DNA of 64,000 nt from positions 11,980 to 75,979 of the forward strand of contig JADJHU010000018.1 in the NCBI GenBank assembly GCA_016707425.1, given 5' to 3'. Made by a program: the position numbers and the translations under genes. Positions 37,610-51,199 of this stretch are shown here, piece by piece (within the stretch, counting starts at the first letter, position 1; each line of letters opens with the position of its first letter). This stretch comes from Gammaproteobacteria bacterium. Its GTDB lineage: Bacteria > Pseudomonadota > Gammaproteobacteria > Steroidobacterales > Steroidobacteraceae. The notes below the pieces were generated by a model, which saw only the letters and a program-made list of their open reading frames with translations, did no database searches and was not told the DNA's origin.

Positions 37610-38213
37610 ATGACCTGCCCGAAGCCACCGACTGCCCGCACGCTGCAGCGCCAGGATACTTTCAGCCGCGTCTACGAGGCGGCGCTGAGCGAGTTCAGGA
37701 GGGTCGGGGTCGAGCAGGCGACCGTGAGCGAGATCTGCCGGCGGGCCGGCGTTGCCAAGGGCACGTTCTTTTTTCATTTCCCCACGAAGGATCACGTGCT
37801 GCTGGCAAGACAGCAGCGGATCTCGGAGGCGATGGCAGAGAGGATCAGTGCGGAGCTCCAGGACGTTCCCGACGCGCGGGCGTTCCTGCAGCGCCTGACC
37901 AAAATCGTCATGGAGGAGCATCAGGCTGTCGGCGATGTCGAGCTCGTGCGCCAGATCAACCTGGCTATCGTCCGCCTGGGGGGTCCCGCGGCTCGGCGTG
38001 GGACACACCGCCTTTGGCGTGGCGCTTGCGAGACAGATCGGCCGGCTCCAGCGGGAGGGAGTGATCCGCTCGGGTGTGAATGCGGCGAGACTCGCCGACT
38101 GCCTGCGGCTCAGCTTCTTCGGGTTTCTGCTCAATCCTCAGTCCTCCTTCGAGACGAGCCGCCGGCAGCTCGCGCTCCTGACGAAACTCCTGGCCGAGGC
38201 TCTCGTCACCTGA
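37610..38213 (+). pseudogene. TetR/AcrR family regulator, +1 frameshift at or near a G6 run (37978-37983)
   Basis: The N-terminal HTH (FSRVYEAALSEFRRVGVEQATVSEICRRAGVAKGTFFFHFPTKDHVL) is in the frame of track ORF 37610. A plausible helical C-terminus (HTAFGVALARQIGRLQREGVIRSGVNAARLADCLRLSFFGFLLNP...) is in the frame of track ORF 37935. The in-frame tail of ORF 37610 is Arg/Pro/Gly junk. Confidence 0.7.
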
Positions 38214-38263
38214 GCCATCCGAAACTCATTGACCGCGGTCAGTCAAGCGCATAGGATGCCCGC

Positions 38264-42978: not shown

Positions 42979-43806
42979 ATGGATCTCGGACTGAAGGGCA
43001 AGACCGTCGTCATTACCGGCGGGAGCGGTGGGATCGGTCAGGGTCTGGTGATGGAGTTCGCACGCGAAGGGGCGAACGTGGTCTCTGCATCACGCGACAT
43101 GAAAGTAGGCGAGAAGCTTGCGGCCCTGGCGCGGGAACAGGGCTTCGCGGGCAGCGTGCTGCCGGTGTCGACCGATGTCACGAAGCGCGCGAGCGTGGAC
43201 GCCATGATCGCACAAGCGCAGCAGCGCTTCGGGCCTGTGGACGCGCTGGTCAACAACGCGGGGGGCGTCAAACGCAGCTGCGCCTTCGAGGAACTCGACG
43301 ACGAGACGCGCCGCTGGGAGCTCGCCCTTAATATCGATGGCGTCGTCAACTGCACACTCGCTGTCGCCCAGGACATGCTCTCGCGAGGCAGGGGGAGCGT
43401 CGTCAACATTTCCTCGAACTCCTCTCTTCTCGGGGAGGCAGCCCAGCAGGTGGTGCACTACGGCTCGACCAAGGGTTTCGTGAACAGTTTCTCGAAGGCG
43501 CTCGCCTACGAGTGGGGCCCAAAGGGCGTGCGCGTGAACACGATCGCCCCCGGCTGGATCGTGCCGCACCGGGACGAGGACATTTCGGCAGGCAGCTTCT
43601 GGAACCGGCTGGAATTCGTCGGCACACCCGAGGGGATGCAGAAGGCGCTCGAGGCCGGGACGCTGCCGAACATGAGCCATCTGCCGATCAAGCGGCTCGG
43701 GCGCCCCGAGGAGGTGGCCCATCTCGCCATGTTCCTCGCCTCCGAGATCTCGGGCTACATCACGGGTCAGCTGATTTCCATCAGTGGTGGGGTGTACATG
43801 CCATGA
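42979..43806 (+). CDS. SDR family oxidoreductase
   Basis: Start trimmed to MDLGLKGKTVVITGGSGGIGQG. NNAGG and YGSTKGF. Confidence 0.85.
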   Translation: MDLGLKGKTVVITGGSGGIGQGLVMEFAREGANVVSASRDMKVGEKLAALAREQGFAGSVLPVSTDVTKRASVDAMIAQAQQRFGPVDALVNNAGGVKRSCAFEELDDETRRWELALNIDGVVNCTLAVAQDMLSRGRGSVVNISSNSSLLGEAAQQVVHYGSTKGFVNSFSKALAYEWGPKGVRVNTIAPGWIVPHRDEDISAGSFWNRLEFVGTPEGMQKALEAGTLPNMSHLPIKRLGRPEEVAHLAMFLASEISGYITGQLISISGGVYMP

Positions 43807-44582
43807 GGACCGCGCCCATGAGTCTCGAGGGGCGCACCGCCATCGTCACCGGCGCAGGCTCGGGCATTGGGGCTGCGATCGCACGACGCCTGGCCGGAGC
43901 CGGCGCTCGAGTGATCGCGGCAGACATTCGGACCGAGGCCGTCGAGACACTGGCCGCCGGGACCCGGGAGGTCACGGCGTGCCGCTGTGATGTCACGCAT
44001 GCGGCCGAGGTCGATGCGCTGGTCGGGAGCGCCGTCGAGCGCTTTGGGCGGCTCGATGTGATGGTCAACAACGTCGGGCAGTCGATCGCCGGCTGGCTGA
44101 AGGATGCGACGGACGAGGAGTGGCAGCGGGTGCTCGCGCTGACGCTCTCCTCGGCGTTCTACGGCGTGCGCGCTGCGCTTCGCGTCATGCTGCCTCGGGG
44201 TTCCGGGAGCATCATCAATATTTCGTCGGGTGCAGGCTTTGGCGGCTCGCCGGGTCTTGCCACCTACGGGGCGGCGAAAGCCGGTGTCAACAATCTCACT
44301 CAGTCGGCGGCCGTGGAGAATGCCCGAAGCGGCGTACGCATCAATGCCATCTCGCCCGGAGCGATCGAGACACCTGCGATTCTTGCCTGGGCACGGAGCC
44401 TTCCGGGTGGAGTACCCGCCTATGAGGCGACGCTGCTGCCGGGGCGCTTCGGGAGGCCGGACGAGATTGCTGCGGCCGCACTCTTTCTCGCGTCCGACGA
44501 GGCGAGCTTCGTAAACGGCGCGGTGCTGCCGGTGGACGGGGCCGCATCCGCACGCATGCCGGCCATCGAGGTGCCCAAGTAG
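43803..44582 (+). CDS. SDR family oxidoreductase
   Basis: ATGA overlap with the upstream SDR. GRTAIVTGAGSGIGAAIA, NNVG, YGAAKAG and PGAIETP. Confidence 0.85.
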   Translation: MRTAPMSLEGRTAIVTGAGSGIGAAIARRLAGAGARVIAADIRTEAVETLAAGTREVTACRCDVTHAAEVDALVGSAVERFGRLDVMVNNVGQSIAGWLKDATDEEWQRVLALTLSSAFYGVRAALRVMLPRGSGSIINISSGAGFGGSPGLATYGAAKAGVNNLTQSAAVENARSGVRINAISPGAIETPAILAWARSLPGGVPAYEATLLPGRFGRPDEIAAAALFLASDEASFVNGAVLPVDGAASARMPAIEVPK

Positions 44583-44611
44583 CCGCGCGCCTCCAGTATG
44601 GCTGGGCCATC

Positions 44612-45799
44612 GTGGCCGTTGCCTTTCTCGCGCAACTGCTGGCGATGGGCACGACAGCCTATGGCTTCGGCTTGCTCGTCAAGCCGATGGCTGCCGAATA
44701 CGGACTGTCGCGCGCTGATGTCAACAGTGGCCTGATCCTGCTGCTCGTTGGCATGGCTGCGGCCTCGCCCTTCATCGGCCGGGCCTTCGATCGGCTGCCA
44801 GGCCGCGTGCTGTTTGCCGGCGCGGCGCTGGTATTCGGCCTCGGCTGTGCGGCCGTCGCCGCGACGCGATCGCTGTGGCTGATGGCTGCGGCGACGGTTC
44901 TGCCACTGGCGATCGGAGCGGCCGCGCTGGGTCCGCTGGCCGGCTCGACGCTCATTGCGCGCTGGTTCGATCATCACCGCGGACGCGCTCTCGGCGTGCT
45001 GGCGGTCTCCTCCTCCGCAGGGGGTCTCGTCGTGTTGCCCCTGATGGCACTCCTGGTCGAGGCTCTTGGCTGGCGCATGGCGCTGACCCTCATGGGCGCC
45101 GCGACGGCGCTGCTCATCGTGCCGCTGGCGCTGATGATCATCCGCGAACGTGATCAGGAGGACTCTGCCCGGGAGGACGCGCCTGCGCCAGCGTCCCACG
45201 CGCGGCCAGAGGGACCCGATGTGCGCCGGTGGACGGTGGGGGAACTCCTCCGTGCGCGTGACTTCTGGCTGCTCGCACTCTGTGTCGGACTGATCACGGG
45301 TGTCGATCAGGCGCTGCTCGCTTCGCTCATCGCCCACGGCACGGATCGGGGATTTTCACTGCAGGCGGCCAGCCTTCTGGTGTCCGCGATCTCGGGCTCG
45401 GCGATTGCCGGCAAGCTCATCGTCGGGACGCTCGCCGATCGCATCGACATGCGCTGGCTGGTTTGGACCGTGGCAGTGCTCACCGAGGTCTATCTCGGCT
45501 GTCTGCTTGCGCAAACCGGCTACGGTACGCTCTTCGTCGCGTCGCTCCTGGTCGGCATGGCCATTGGGGGCGTGATGCCGCTCTGGGCGGCGTTCATCGG
45601 GGCCCGCTTCGGAGCCGCGTCGTTCGGGACTGCGATGGGGCTGATGATCCCGGTGCAGATGCCGCTCACACTCACGTGTCTGCGCTATGTGGGGCATGCC
45701 TATGACGTGTCCGGGAGCTATGAGCCGGCGTTCCTCGCCTTCGCAGGCATCATGCTGTTTGCAGCGCTGGCCGTGCTGCCGGTGAGGGTGGCGCGCTGA
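44612..45799 (+). CDS. MFS transporter
   Basis: 395 aa, about 12 hydrophobic segments. The D-R-x-G-R-like loop FDRLPGRV lies after TM2. GTG start. Confidence 0.8.
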   Translation: MAVAFLAQLLAMGTTAYGFGLLVKPMAAEYGLSRADVNSGLILLLVGMAAASPFIGRAFDRLPGRVLFAGAALVFGLGCAAVAATRSLWLMAAATVLPLAIGAAALGPLAGSTLIARWFDHHRGRALGVLAVSSSAGGLVVLPLMALLVEALGWRMALTLMGAATALLIVPLALMIIRERDQEDSAREDAPAPASHARPEGPDVRRWTVGELLRARDFWLLALCVGLITGVDQALLASLIAHGTDRGFSLQAASLLVSAISGSAIAGKLIVGTLADRIDMRWLVWTVAVLTEVYLGCLLAQTGYGTLFVASLLVGMAIGGVMPLWAAFIGARFGAASFGTAMGLMIPVQMPLTLTCLRYVGHAYDVSGSYEPAFLAFAGIMLFAALAVLPVRVAR

Positions 45800-46029
45800 G
45801 AAGGGTGCGCGCCGTCACCCAGGTTCGGACCTTCACCGGCCAGACGGCGCCTATCAGCCAACGGCCTGGCCGCTGCCCACACCCGCGCCCACACCGGGCC
45901 CAACCCGCGCGCAGCGGCTCAGCTCAGCGCCACGAGGCGCACGCGCGGGCCACGCCGCACGGACGCCAGGCCACGCGCCGCCAGCAACACCACCCGGCAC
46001 TCCGGCTCGACCCCTCCTCCCAGCTCACG

Positions 46030-46041
46030 CCCCCCCCCCCC
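46030..46041. repeat. Homopolymer C12
   Basis: Counted directly in the sequence. Confidence 0.95.
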
Positions 46042-46127
46042 ACCCGATCCGGGTCCCGGCCTGTGCCCAAGCGACTTCGACCCCACAGCCCGCCCCACGC
46101 CGTCAGTTCCAGACCCCCCGCACGCAG

Positions 46128-46155
46128 CCCCCCCCCCCCCCCCCCCCCCCCCCCC
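46128..46155. repeat. Homopolymer C28
   Basis: Counted directly. The run ends 46 nt upstream of the CoA-transferase ATG (46202) and 35 nt upstream of its AGGAGG. Confidence 0.95.
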
Positions 46156-46201
46156 GTGCCGGAGACAGCATGGCGGCAGGCGCAACACGTAGGAGGCACT
46201 C

Positions 46202-47419
46202 ATGACCCTGGCACTGGAAGGCATTCGCGTCCTCGACTGGACCATCTGGCAGCAGGGACCCATCGGCACGGCGCTGCTCGGCGATCTTGGGGCGGAGGTC
46301 ATCAAGCTCGAGGCGCTCGAGGGCGACCCGGGCCGTGGTCTGGTGCGCCTCTCTGGTATGGGTCTCGCAGAACGCCCGAACTTCTACATCGAGGCGAACA
46401 ACCGCAACAAGAAGAGCCTTGCGCTCGACCTGAAGAAACCGGAAGCGCGCGAGATCGTCCACGAACTCGTGAAGCGCGCGGATGTCTTCGCACAGAACTT
46501 CCGCGTCGGAGTGGCCGAGCGTCTCGGACTCGACTACGAGACTCTGCGTGACCACAACCCGAGGCTCATCTATGCGCACGCGACGGGCTTCGGGCCCAAG
46601 GGCCCCGAGGCCGCCGTGGCCGCGATGGACCAGATGGGCATTGCCCGATCGGGGCTCATGCTCGCAGTGGGCGAGCCCGACGCCCCACCGCAGCAGATCG
46701 CCGGCGGCATCGCGGACCAGATGAGCGGCATCATGCTCGCCTGGGGCGTGCTCGCCGCCTTGGTCGCACGTGAGCGTCATGGCATGGGGCAGAAGGTCGA
46801 CGTGTCCCAACTCGGATCGATGGCGCTCCTGCAGGGGCTCAATCTCTCCGCCAGGCTCATGCTGGGGACAGCGATCCCGCGCGTGCGCCGCAGCGAGTCG
46901 GCAAATCCGCTCTGGAATCACTACCGCTGCGCGGACGGGCTCTGGCTCGTGCTCGGCATGGCACAGGGCGAGCGCCATTGGGCGGCATTCTGTCGCGCCC
47001 TCGGCGCTCCTGAGATCGAAGGCCTGTGGAGCGGGGCTCGCGCGTCGGCTGCGAGCGGCGATGCGGCCGCCACGGCGGCCGTGGCAGCGCTCGATGAGCG
47101 CTTTGCCAGCCGCCCGCGTGCGGAGTGGCTGGCGCAGCTGCGCGCCGCGAGCGCGGATTTCATCGTCGCACCGGTCAATCGCCTGGAAGATCTCCCGGAT
47201 GATCCCCAGGTACGGGCCAACGAGTACGTCACGGAGTTCGATCATCCCCAGCACGGTCCGACACGCATGGTTGGTTTCCCGGTGGGACTCTCCGCGACGC
47301 CGGCATCCATCCGGGCTGCGGCGCCTGAGCTCGGACAGCATACGGAGGAGGTGCTGCAGGAGTTGCTCGGTTACGACTGGGAGCGCATCGGACACCTGCG
47401 TGCGCGCGGCGTGATCTAG
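46202..47419 (+). CDS. CaiB/BaiF family (class III) CoA-transferase
   Basis: 405 aa. GIRVLDWTIWQQGPIGTALLGDLGAEVIKLE is the family N-terminal signature. Confidence 0.9.
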   Translation: MTLALEGIRVLDWTIWQQGPIGTALLGDLGAEVIKLEALEGDPGRGLVRLSGMGLAERPNFYIEANNRNKKSLALDLKKPEAREIVHELVKRADVFAQNFRVGVAERLGLDYETLRDHNPRLIYAHATGFGPKGPEAAVAAMDQMGIARSGLMLAVGEPDAPPQQIAGGIADQMSGIMLAWGVLAALVARERHGMGQKVDVSQLGSMALLQGLNLSARLMLGTAIPRVRRSESANPLWNHYRCADGLWLVLGMAQGERHWAAFCRALGAPEIEGLWSGARASAASGDAAATAAVAALDERFASRPRAEWLAQLRAASADFIVAPVNRLEDLPDDPQVRANEYVTEFDHPQHGPTRMVGFPVGLSATPASIRAAAPELGQHTEEVLQELLGYDWERIGHLRARGVI

Positions 47420-47434
47420 CCGGAGAGGAACACC

Positions 47435-48307
47435 ATGGCGGTCACTCTGACGGGCCTCGAGGGCAGGACGGCAATCGTCACCGGTGCCGGGCGCATGAGG
47501 AGCATCGGCCGCTCGATTGCCCTGGTGCTGGCCCGTGCGGGCTGCGACGTGGTCGTGACCGGCAGCGGAAGGGCGCCCGAGCGCTACCCTGAGGATGAGC
47601 GGCGCGCTGGCTGGCGCGATGTCGAATCGGTAGCGGAGGAGATCCGCACGCTCGGGCGTCGCGCGCTGGCCGCGGTCTGCGATGTGGCGGACGCCGAGGC
47701 AGTGCAAACACTCCTGGAGCGCGTTACACGCGAATTTGGCGACATCGATGTGCTTGTGAACAACGCCGGATCGGCCTTCGGATCCGACCGTGTGCCCGTC
47801 GTCGATCTGCCCGTTCCCGAGTGGCATCGGGTCATCGCCACGAATCTGCACGGCACCTTCTACATGTCGCAGGCTGTCGCGCGTCGGATGGTGGCGCAGG
47901 GCCGCGGCGGCAGCATCGTGAACATCTCCAGTCTGTCGGCGCGCCTGCTGTCGGCGGATAGCGGGGTCTACGCCGCATCGAAGGCGGCGGTGAACGCGCT
48001 TTCGACTGTCATGGCCGCCGAGCTCGGGCCGCACCGGATCCGTGTCAACGCCGTGTGCCCGGGCATCATCGACACGAGTCGCCATGACGAACTGCGGAGC
48101 ACCGCGCTCTGGGAGAGCGTCATCAGAAGCTTCGTGCCACTCGGGCGCGCAGGCACGGGCGGGGATATCGCCAATCTCGTGGCCTTCCTGTGCAGCGACG
48201 AGGGCGCGTGGATCACGGGACAGCACATTTACATCGACGGCGGCCACGGCTTCACGCCGCGCAGCGCGCCGTCGCATACAGACGGATCATCGCAAGGAGA
48301 CGCATGA
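47435..48307 (+). CDS. SDR family oxidoreductase
   Basis: 290 aa. GRTAIVTGAGRMRSIGRSIA, NNAG, YAASKAA and PGIIDT. Confidence 0.85.
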   Translation: MAVTLTGLEGRTAIVTGAGRMRSIGRSIALVLARAGCDVVVTGSGRAPERYPEDERRAGWRDVESVAEEIRTLGRRALAAVCDVADAEAVQTLLERVTREFGDIDVLVNNAGSAFGSDRVPVVDLPVPEWHRVIATNLHGTFYMSQAVARRMVAQGRGGSIVNISSLSARLLSADSGVYAASKAAVNALSTVMAAELGPHRIRVNAVCPGIIDTSRHDELRSTALWESVIRSFVPLGRAGTGGDIANLVAFLCSDEGAWITGQHIYIDGGHGFTPRSAPSHTDGSSQGDA

Positions 48308-49077
48308 TGGCATGGTGGAACAGGTTCTCTCTCGAAGGCAGGACGGCGCTCGTGACGGGCGGCTCGCGTGGCATCGGCCGTGCCACGGCGGAGTTGCTGG
48401 CGCAGGCGGGTGCGCACGTGGTCGTCTCTTCCCGCAACGGCGCCGACCTGGACGAGGTGGTGAGAGGGATCCGGTCGGCGGGAGGGAAGGCGGAGGCCAT
48501 CCCTGCGCACATCGGGCGGATCGAGGACGTCGAGGCCCTGCTCGCCGAGCTCGAGCGCCGGGCGCTGCACGTCGACACCCTCGTGAACAATGCCGGCATC
48601 AGTCCACTCGTGAAGGAGCCCTTCTCTGGCACCTCGCTCGAGCTCTGGCAGAAGATCATGGACGTGAATCTGCGCGGGCCGTTTCTGCTCAGCGCGCGTC
48701 TCGGGCGCGCCATGGCTGCTCGCCGCTCGGGCTCGATCGTCAACATCAGTTCCACGGGAGCGTTGCGGACGAGCCCGCTCATCGGGGCCTACTGCGTCTC
48801 GAAGAGGGCGGTGAATACGCTCACCGAAGTGTTCGCCAAGGAATTCGGGACGCACGGCGTGCGGGTGAACACGATCAGCTGTGGTCTCGTCGAGACCGCC
48901 ATGGGTGACTGGACGATCAAGGACCAGAAGGCCTACGACTTCACACTGGGCATGACGCCGCTCGCGCGCCATGCCCAACCGGACGAGGTGGCCTATGCGG
49001 TGCTGTTCCTCGTCAGCGGCGCGGCGAGCTTCGTCACGGGCGCTAATCTCGCCGTGGACGGCGGGACGGGCATCTAG
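48304..49077 (+). CDS. SDR family oxidoreductase
   Basis: ATGA overlap with the upstream SDR. GRTALVTGGSRGIGRA, NNAG and YCVSKRA. Confidence 0.85.
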   Translation: MMAWWNRFSLEGRTALVTGGSRGIGRATAELLAQAGAHVVVSSRNGADLDEVVRGIRSAGGKAEAIPAHIGRIEDVEALLAELERRALHVDTLVNNAGISPLVKEPFSGTSLELWQKIMDVNLRGPFLLSARLGRAMAARRSGSIVNISSTGALRTSPLIGAYCVSKRAVNTLTEVFAKEFGTHGVRVNTISCGLVETAMGDWTIKDQKAYDFTLGMTPLARHAQPDEVAYAVLFLVSGAASFVTGANLAVDGGTGI

Positions 49078-51199
49078 ATCGCCGCGGCGACCTCCGCGGC
49101 GCTGCGCATCGCACCCTCGATGTAACTCACGCCGCGGCAGTCGCCGACCACGTGCACCGCGAAGCTCGCCGCGCGCAGCTGCTCCGCGAGCGCCAGGTCT
49201 CCGCTCGCGCCCTTGGCGACGATGACGTGATCAGCCAGGATCGCGGCACCCTGGCCTGCGGCATCCGTGAAGCGCACGCACTCGGCCTCGATGCGGATAT
49301 CGCTCGCGCCAGCACGCAATGTGACGCCGTGCTCTTCGAGCTCTTCGATGAGGCGCATACGTCGCACGATCGTGAGACCTGCTCCGAGTCGCGGGACGTC
49401 ATCGACCACTCCCACCGTGCGACCACGCTCGCTCAGGAACTCGGCCAGTTCGAGGCCGACGAGCTCGCCGCCGACGATGGCGATGCGCTTGCCGAGTGGC
49501 ATCCACTGGTGCGTCGCCCTGCGTACGAAGTCGAGGTTGGCCGTCATGCCGGTGGCGGCGCCGATCTTCGTCGCGAGCCGCGTCGTCCAGCCGGTCTTCT
49601 TCTCCAGGGCCTCCGAGCTCTCTCCCAGTACGAGTCGCCGCAGATCGTCGCCGCTGAAGACGTGAGGGAGATCACTGCCCGGGATCGGGGGCATGCTGCG
49701 ACGGGCGCCGGTTGCGACGACGACCGCATCTGCCGAGAGAGATCGCAGGAGTTCGGGCGTCGCAACCGTGCCGAGGCGTACTTCCACGTGCGAGGCTTCG
49801 ACCTGGCGCGCGAGCCAGTCGAGCAGCCGCTCGTTGGCAGCGTAAGCCAGTGCCGCGAAGCGGAGCGTTCCACCCAGCTGATCACCACGCTCGAGCAGCA
49901 CGACCTCGTGCCCGGCGCGATCGAGGCGGCGCGCTGCTTCCATGCCGCCGGGTCCGCCGCCCACGACCACCACGCGTTTGCGCGTCGCCGCGGCGGGCGG
50001 TGCCGGCCGGAGTGACTCGAAACACGTCTCGGGATTCACGGCGCAGCGCGCATGCTCCTGGATGTAGATTGCGCTGATACACGTATAGCAATAGATGCAG
50101 GGCAGAACATCCTGAGGGCGGCCTTCCTTCAGCTTCCTCGGGAGATGCGGGTCAGCGAGGAGTTTTCGACCCATCGCCACGAAGTCGATGGAGCCGTCGG
50201 CGATGCGCGCATCGCCCACTTCGGGCTCGACACGACCGGAGGCGATGACGGGAATACGGACTGCCGCCTTGATGGCCGCAGCAAAGGCAGGTTCACACCT
50301 GGCTCATGTGGAGTGTGCGAGGCGGAGTGGAGCTTTCCATGGTCCGTATCGTGGTAGGCCGTGACGGTGATCGCGTTCGCACCCGCGTCCTGGGCCATGC
50401 ACGCCGTGCGTTTCGCATCGTCGATGGTGATCCCGCCCTCCTTGCCGACCTCCCGGGAATCGAGCTTGCACCACATCGCAAAGTCGGGGCCGACCGCGGC
50501 GCGCACGGCGCGCAGCACCTCGAGAAGGAAGCGCACACGGTTCTCGAGGCTGCCGCCGTATTCGTCCGTGCGCCGGTTCGAGCGCGGTGAGACGAAAGAG
50601 GAGAGGAGGTAACCGTGGCCGCCGTGGACTTCGACGCCGTCGGCACCCGCACGCTTCGCGCGTACCGCGGCTGCTGCAAACTGATTCACGACGGTGCGGA
50701 TGTCGTCGGCCGTCATGACCCTGAAGTCCACGTTCCTGATCTGGGGTGCGGGTGACTTGGCGATCTCCTCGAGCAGCCACATGCTGCTGACGTCCCTCTT
50801 CGGCGGTTCGGGGAGTGAAGGCACCCAGAGCGGCCGCCCCGCCTTCATGTCTTCGGGTGCGACGAGACCACCGTGATGCAGCTGCAGCGAGAACTTCGCC
50901 CCGTGGCGGTGGATCGCTTCGGCCATCGCCGCGATTCCGGGGATGAAGCGGTCGTCGGAGATCGCGATCTGGCCCGGCTGATTTCCACCGGCCGGCCAGG
51001 CGACGCCTGCCACCCCCGTGTTCACCAGCGCCACGCCACCGCGAGCCTGCTCCTCGTGAAAGGCACGGATACGCTCGCCGCAGGTGCCATCGGGTTCGGC
51101 GAGATTGACGCCCATGGCGGTGACGATGATGCGGTTGCGGAGCTCGAGTGGCCCGATACGGCCGGGAGAGAGGAGGTGTGCGAAAGCTCCAGATGCCAT
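49074..51199 (-). pseudogene. Two-domain NADH:flavin oxidoreductase (OYE FMN domain + FAD/NAD(P) domain, 2,4-dienoyl-CoA reductase-like), split by a frameshift near 50290-50300
   Basis: N-terminal track ORF 50129..51199 (LRNRIIVTAMGVNL, LHHGG, EVHGGHGYLLSSF) decays into junk after ...HTPHEPGV. The expected continuation PAFAAAIKAAVRIPVIASGRVEPEVGDARIADGSIDFVAMGRKLLADP...CIYCYTC...VVVVGGGPGGMEAA is in the frame of track ORF 49074..50219. Confidence 0.75.

Follow-up and report, generated by a model that had tools for sequence, protein, structure and literature searches.

A 28-nt poly-C run upstream of a CoA-transferase gene is very probably a consensus artefact across a lysR presence/absence polymorphism

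Introduction

Does a run of 28 consecutive cytosines in front of a CoA-transferase gene exist in the chromosome, or only in the deposited sequence? The run lies in the 64,000-nt stretch of contig JADJHU010000018.1 that was analysed here (the window). Homopolymers longer than 10 nt are rare in bacteria, and homopolymer indels are documented in nanopore consensus sequences (PMC9262707). A first-pass annotation, made from the letters of the window, had set several readings of the run side by side: a slipped-strand promoter switch such as that of the Bordetella fim genes, an i-motif or a G-quadruplex on the complementary strand, or an artefact caused by a two-colour poly-G read or a mis-join. In this work the site was compared with the same site in independent near-identical assemblies, and the sequence around the run was traced to its source.

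The poly-C run in the deposited sequence

As the first-pass annotation reported, the C28 run occupies positions 46128-46155 of the deposited sequence and is followed by 46 nt and then by the ATG of the CoA-transferase gene at 46202. The features around the run are given below, where L186, L189, L190 and L191 are comparison contigs assembled from other sequencing runs.

44612-45799, plus strand: intact MFS transporter gene (Pfam MFS_1, E=2e-38), 99.7-99.9% identical to L189 and L190 with 0 gaps
45804-46156, plus strand: 353-nt C-rich "spacer", a collinear, deletion-only image of a ~1.0-kb lysR region
46030-46041, plus strand: C12 run, of the same origin as the C28 run and immediately 3' of the lysR-matching block CTCCCAGCTCACGC
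46128-46155, plus strand: C28 run, present in the deposited sequence but missing from L189 and L190, contigs of 99.5-99.9% identity
46157-46201, plus strand: genuine 45-nt leader with the Shine-Dalgarno motif GGAGG at 46192-46196, common to the lysR-deleted variant
46202-47419, plus strand: intact family III CoA-transferase gene (Pfam CoA_transf_3, E=1e-111, profile positions 1-366 of 366), 99.2-99.5% identical to the Logan contigs with 0 gaps
47435-48307, plus strand: short-chain dehydrogenase (SDR) gene, also called in L186 and L191
48307-49077, plus strand: second short-chain dehydrogenase gene, encoding 256 aa according to the gene call in L191

Elsewhere in the window, a TetR gene (37610-38254, plus strand) is a single ORF of 214 aa with the TetR_N domain at residues 23-66.

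The C28 site is located mid-contig, without an N gap and with unique flanks on both sides. In the 3.35-Mb genome (19 contigs), the C or G runs that come next in length are the C12 of the C-rich spacer, a single G12 and a handful of 9-mers, and the C28 tract is the only very-low-entropy 30-nt window of the whole genome. No homopolymer junk was found at the ends of any of the contigs. Since only about 2e-7 runs of this length are expected from composition alone, the C28 run is not a product of chance. The G12, which is a C12 on the other strand and the sole other 12-mer run in the genome, lies outside the window at C9:82748-82759; it comes after ...GCGCTGA, and its in-frame translation could give the upstream gene a proline-rich tail at the C-terminus, APALTPPPPASSPPQP*.

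The sequence in which the run is embedded is itself unusual. The 402-nt spacer between the MFS and CoA-transferase genes (45800-46201) is composed of 63 A, 205 C, 104 G and 30 T, and its C content rises toward the 3' end, where the runs form the series C6, C12 and C28. The spacer gave no Rfam match, no second copy in the genome and no plasmid match, and a search for a sigma-70-like promoter and an intrinsic-terminator consensus found neither. Codon periodicity was absent from the spacer on both strands, which fits a frame-scrambled image of a gene.

The site in independent near-identical assemblies

The contigs used for comparison were the members of the 90%-identity cluster of the CoA-transferase in independent Logan assemblies of other sequencing runs. 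They differ from the window by 0.1-0.7% and thus represent close strains, not the same DNA. Contig L189 (SRR11845619) matches window positions 43596-45803 and 46156-47921, and contig L190 (SRR11845634) matches positions 44715-45803 and 46156-47921, in both cases with 99.5-99.9% identity and 0 gaps. Since the two flank matches are contiguous in both contigs, and window positions 45803 and 46156 fall on the same base of L189, the window contains 353 extra nt (45804-46156), which make up the whole C-rich spacer with its C6, C12 and C28 runs. The junction in L189 and L190 reads ...GCGCGCTGAGAAG-TGCCGGGCACAGCATGGCGGCAGGCGCAACACGTAGGAGGCACTC-ATG (TGAGAAG-TGCCGGGCACAGCATGGCGGCAGGCGCAACACGTAGGAGGCACTC-ATG), and the distance from the MFS stop to the CoA-transferase start is 49 nt.

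A different form of the site was found in other members of the cluster. In L187, whose flanks are 94% and 90% identical to the window on the two sides, a full LysR gene of 302 aa (HTH_1 and LysR_substrate domains) and a 112-nt spacer are found at the same place. Contig L191, which is 99.4% identical to the window over 2891 nt with 0 gaps, contains the last 537 nt of lysR and the same spacer as L187. Only 67 nt of the L187-type spacer are covered by L188, and the junction form is common to L187, L188 and L191, which come from three sequencing runs. Contig L186 (99.25% identity, 0 gaps) breaks off 11 nt ahead of the ATG, at the very point from which the two variants diverge. No C or G run of at least 7 nt occurs in any of the 8 related loci.

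The site has two natural states: a lysR gene between the MFS and CoA-transferase genes, or a clean deletion that leaves a 49-nt spacer. In coordinates, this lysR presence/absence polymorphism sets window 45797-46201 against L189 2205-2253 and L187 1311-2343. In the lysR-deleted form, where a 49-nt spacer fuses the MFS operon to the CoA-transferase/SDR/SDR genes, the latter are probably transcribed as part of the upstream unit.

The MFS and CoA-transferase genes are genuine neighbours in these relatives. More distant material was also searched. Exact look-up of both flanking proteins and an exact-pattern scan of metagenome contigs gave no match, and a metagenome scan with the MFS protein returned relatives of only 66% identity, which were without the spacer. 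The relatives of the CoA-transferase in genome contigs reached at most 73% identity (Myxococcota and Binatia MAGs); they lie in other gene contexts and are without C or G runs.

Derivation of the spacer from lysR

The 353-nt insert was aligned with lysR. BLAST gave blocks on the same strand and in the same order (insert/lysR: 7-45/42-80, 101-161/209-286, 203-227/351-376, 267-279/490-502 and 292-307/939-954), and in the longest of them all 17 of the 17 gap positions correspond to bases that are absent from the window. The global alignment of the insert with lysR scored 350.5, whereas shuffled inserts scored 244.9 +/- 8.1 (z=13) and the reverse-complement control 263.5. When the insert was treated as an ordered subsequence, 220 of its first 226 nt (97%) could be placed in order within lysR nt 1-400; the corresponding values were 195.5 +/- 2.1 for shuffles and 195.9 +/- 3.6, with a maximum of 204, for unrelated genome segments. 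For the last ~125 nt, which include the C28 run, the homology to lysR is given by two short anchors (E=0.15 and 0.53) and by collinearity, the subsequence test being saturated there.

The retained bases are strongly unequal. Relative to lysR, 60% of C, 33% of A, 28% of G and 15% of T were kept, and there are only 2 mismatches. The 353-nt spacer derives from lysR on the same strand and in the same order, by deletions only. Since most of the bases other than C were dropped from GC-rich coding DNA, cytosines that had been separated merge, and this accounts for the strand-biased composition of the spacer, for the rise of C toward its 3' end and for the C6, C12 and C28 runs.

Assembly quality and the probable origin of the spacer

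One contig, of 1.03 Mb, contains a complete 16S gene in its interior, which suggests that the genome was assembled from long reads. Repeat copies, compared over 104 kb, gave 1043 gap openings and 1212 mismatches, with over half of the gaps lengthening a run of the same base, whereas the comparison of unique regions with the Logan contigs gave 0 gaps. The IS copies are garbled, and so is one of the tuf copies: when C15:939269-940457 was compared with C15:955584-956775, one copy was found to have lost 2 nt at one place and 1 nt at another, ~250 nt away. The damaged copy is without the conserved DKPFLMPVEDV motif and reads ERPLV where the other has DKPFL. These deletions are a consensus error in a duplicated essential gene. 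Garbling is thus found also at other sites where reads of different copies can mix (one tuf copy, repeats) and unique DNA has 0 gaps; indel-riddled multi-copy genes next to clean unique DNA fit a consensus taken over mixed reads.

Other irregularities of the assembly were also seen. Between repeat copies there is, in general, roughly 1 gap in every 100 nt. Several small contigs repeat, at 94-96% identity and with very many gaps, sequence that larger contigs also contain (C19:1-2526 and C18:96109-98649; C12:1-5406 and C3:181641-187058; C10 and C2:150081-155450) and are probably strain haplotigs or poorly polished duplicates. In the window, a two-domain NADH:flavin oxidoreductase / pyridine-nucleotide-disulphide reductase is split at 49074-51199 on the minus strand. 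Its 381-aa ORF (49074-50219) opens with the last 30 positions of the Oxidored_FMN profile, which places the FMN domain upstream in another frame. Given the assembly, this frameshift may be a consensus error and not the mark of a pseudogene.

The limits of the garbled stretch, 45803 and 46156, are exactly those of the deletion in L189 and L190. Since the limits are those of a natural deletion, a consensus over mixed reads is the most likely cause of the garbling. The assembly shows neither of the two natural states of the site, and in their place stands a collinear subset of the bases of lysR, of which about two thirds are lost in very many small deletions. Cytosine has survived best and thymine worst, with the result that adjacent cytosines join into C6, C12 and lastly C28. 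The most likely source of such losses would be consensus calling in which base and gap competed, column by column, in a pile-up of mixed lysR-present and lysR-deleted reads, and we infer that a mixed pile-up of this kind caused the garbling.

An artefact is to be recognised by ordinary sequence at the site in independent near-identical assemblies, as seen in the 49-nt junction of L189 and L190 and in the lysR of L191 and L187; by an aberrant stretch that can be derived from the true sequence through collinear deletions, as found here (z=13, 97%, 2 mismatches); and by limits that are those of a real variant, together with errors clustered at heterogeneous pile-ups, both of which were observed. 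From these facts, the C28 run, the C12 run and the entire 353-nt C-rich spacer are very probably a consensus artefact, being neither a real feature of the chromosome nor a genetic switch.

The spacer resembles the residual consensus errors of long-read and hybrid MAGs in being dominated by indels and in belonging to a class of errors confined to repeats and polymorphic sites, the garbled stretch being bounded by a real structural variant. The published consensus errors, however, are mostly 1-nt errors in true homopolymers, whereas here a long homopolymer is newly created. It arises by the loss of bases between cytosines, across a 1-kb presence/absence polymorphism.

A decayed lysR remnant

A collinear similarity to lysR would equally be expected of a pseudogene. 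The 353 nt could accordingly be a decayed lysR remnant that is physically present in this strain, with C-runs formed by real mutation, and a haplotig search found no intact copy of this lysR elsewhere in the assembly, as such a remnant would also predict. This explanation is nevertheless very unlikely. The flanks are 99.4-99.9% identical to those of strains in which lysR is intact or cleanly deleted, and this allows a handful of changes per kb. In contrast, about 650 of 1000 bases would have to be lost in very many deletions of 1-4 nt, with 2 mismatches and a fourfold bias between bases, which is too much for that divergence. With the flanks differing by only 0.1-0.7%, there was no time for hundreds of base-biased micro-deletions. 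Furthermore, the limits of the supposed remnant match the deletion end points of another haplotype to the base. To our knowledge, no mutational process gives such base-biased micro-deletion with almost no substitutions. It is highly improbable that the C-rich spacer and the C28 run are real through a strongly base-biased micro-deletion process that eroded lysR within ~0.5% divergence; if this were true, no longer poly-C tract would have been reported from a bacterial chromosome, and the run would stand before a catabolic operon.

A functional tract in the leader

Another explanation takes the run as real DNA of high mutability, placed in the promoter or leader of the CoA-transferase operon and acting as a slipped-strand contingency switch or as an extreme rut site. 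Another genus of the order does have genuine poly-C tracts, of 14-27 nt, ahead of genes for surface proteins. In the Bordetella fim2, fim3 and fimX genes, a poly-C stretch on the sense strand likewise lies a few tens of nt upstream of the gene; these tracts, which differ from strain to strain and control the surface fimbriae, measure 10-18 C in B. pertussis and at most 20 C in B. bronchiseptica (PMC1891110). In contrast, the run in the window is absent from near-identical strains and stands in garbled sequence before genes of cytoplasmic enzymes.

Judged against promoter-type contingency loci such as Bordetella fim and Neisseria opc/porA, the site differs in each respect. No tract of variable length was found at the orthologous site in the 8 related loci, where the site is either 49 nt or lysR. 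A run of 28 nt cannot be the 16-18-nt spacer between -35 and -10 elements, and no sigma-70-like promoter whose element spacing it could fit was found in the spacer. The genes downstream encode a CoA-transferase and two SDRs, which are cytoplasmic catabolic enzymes and not surface antigens or other host-interaction proteins. The slipped-strand switch proposed by the first-pass annotation is therefore unsupported, since the near-identical independent assemblies have neither the tract nor the C-rich spacer, and the i-motif or G-quadruplex is unsupported for the same reason.

Rho loading was considered as a further function. The rut sites are at least 70-80 nt of C-rich, G-poor, unstructured and untranslated RNA (RhoTermPredict criteria, PMC6407284). 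The spacer as written resembles them in both composition and folding: its C/G ratio is above 2 over ~250 nt with a peak of 5.5, which places it in the top 1e-5 of 78-nt windows, its RNA is less folded than shuffles (z=+3.07) with the run as an unpaired loop, and Rho is encoded in the genome. However, none of the independent near-identical assemblies contains the sequence with these properties, which arose from lysR through deletions alone. Moreover, C-rich spacers are not a general feature of the genome, as 287 co-directional spacers have a mean sense-strand skew of about 0 and this one is the single extreme outlier among them. The spacer differs from rut sites in that its composition was very probably made by the artefact, the genuine junction being 49 nt or a lysR gene. 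The Rho/rut explanation was for this reason set aside; on the sequence as written, at least 78 nt are C-rich (C/G >1), unstructured and untranslated, but that sequence is very probably not genuine. A functional tract of either kind is thus highly unlikely.

Tracts of the genuine kind were seen in G234, a single-contig genome of the same order and another family. Paralogous loci of this genome carry poly-G runs of 23, 14 and 18 nt at the same position:

L149 2102-2124 (G234:C1:133053): poly-G run of 23 nt
L153 2102-2115: poly-G run of 14 nt
L157 2084-2101: poly-G run of 18 nt

The flanks of one pair of copies are nearly 100% identical, and for another copy the identity is 81%. On the strand where it is poly-C, the tract is found ~27 nt upstream of the GTG start of a gene for a large secreted FN3-domain protein. 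Since the tract keeps the same position with different lengths in diverged paralogues, it is real, and these tracts look like a genuine contingency-locus family in an environmental lineage. A further C27 (G234:C1:680468-680494) lies inside a weaker, 71%-identical copy, apart from the set that shares the same position. The G234 tracts resemble the run in the window in that poly-C stands on the sense strand ~27 nt before a start codon, and differ from it in that the run in the window is without paralogue support.

Poly-G read tails, mis-joins and long C runs in related genomes

The least probable explanation, and an extremely remote one, is a poly-G read tail from two-colour Illumina chemistry, or a chimera in which homopolymer junk links two unrelated loci. 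Such junk is frequent among MAGs of the lineage: runs of at least C16 occur in 42 of the 201 genomes of the family and runs of at least C18 in 55 of the 301 genomes of the order, and most of the 50 loci read were junk, consisting of contig ends, N gaps, mixed C/G runs and poly-A/T chains. These censuses gave mostly junk and a few real tracts, and they set priors only and could not decide the present case. The tract in the window, however, is mid-contig, without N and with clean contig ends, and shows none of the contig end, N gap or mixed low-complexity sequence by which poly-G tails are recognised. From the way in which such reads arise, poly-G tails would be expected to dead-end and not to bridge two unique flanks on the same strand. 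Furthermore, the MFS and CoA-transferase genes are truly adjacent in relatives, the sequence adjoining the run is recognisably lysR, and the two sides agree in GC content and tetranucleotide signature (r=0.996). A chimera between organisms was rejected on account of this single signature. Of the artefact suggested by the first-pass annotation, the verdict stands, as the tract is absent in relatives and the spacer derives from lysR, whereas the mechanism of a two-colour poly-G read or a mis-join falls, as the tract is mid-contig and its flanks are truly adjacent.

Two of the long C runs in other genomes deserve description. At L097 (G213:C11, ~827600), a stretch of ~600 nt gradually loses G, from 23% to 0%, and ends in the series C16/C13/C13/C20/C30, after which normal sequence returns abruptly; a nearly C-free patch lies ~1 kb from this series. 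The locus has the same architecture as the window in a more extreme form, and is probably the same kind of consensus failure. At L093 1501-1516 (G189:C15:399655), a C16 separates the gene of a fatty-acid desaturase from that of a sulfotransferase. Other species of the genus do not have this pair side by side, and in G458 the distance between the two is ~900 kb, so this C16 is located at a synteny breakpoint and is suspect.

Conclusions

The consensus artefact that very probably underlies the C28 run calls for caution, as a consensus across a strain-level presence/absence polymorphism can create a striking homopolymer in a MAG. Such an artefact can pass tests of function made on the sequence: here it had the properties required for Rho loading and resembled known phase-variation switches. 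Here it was betrayed by a gradient of composition that leads up to the homopolymer, by the sudden resumption of ordinary sequence, and by repeats full of indels at other places in the assembly. What is genuine at the site is modest: near-identical strains differ in a LysR regulator located between the MFS operon and the CoA-transferase/SDR/SDR genes.
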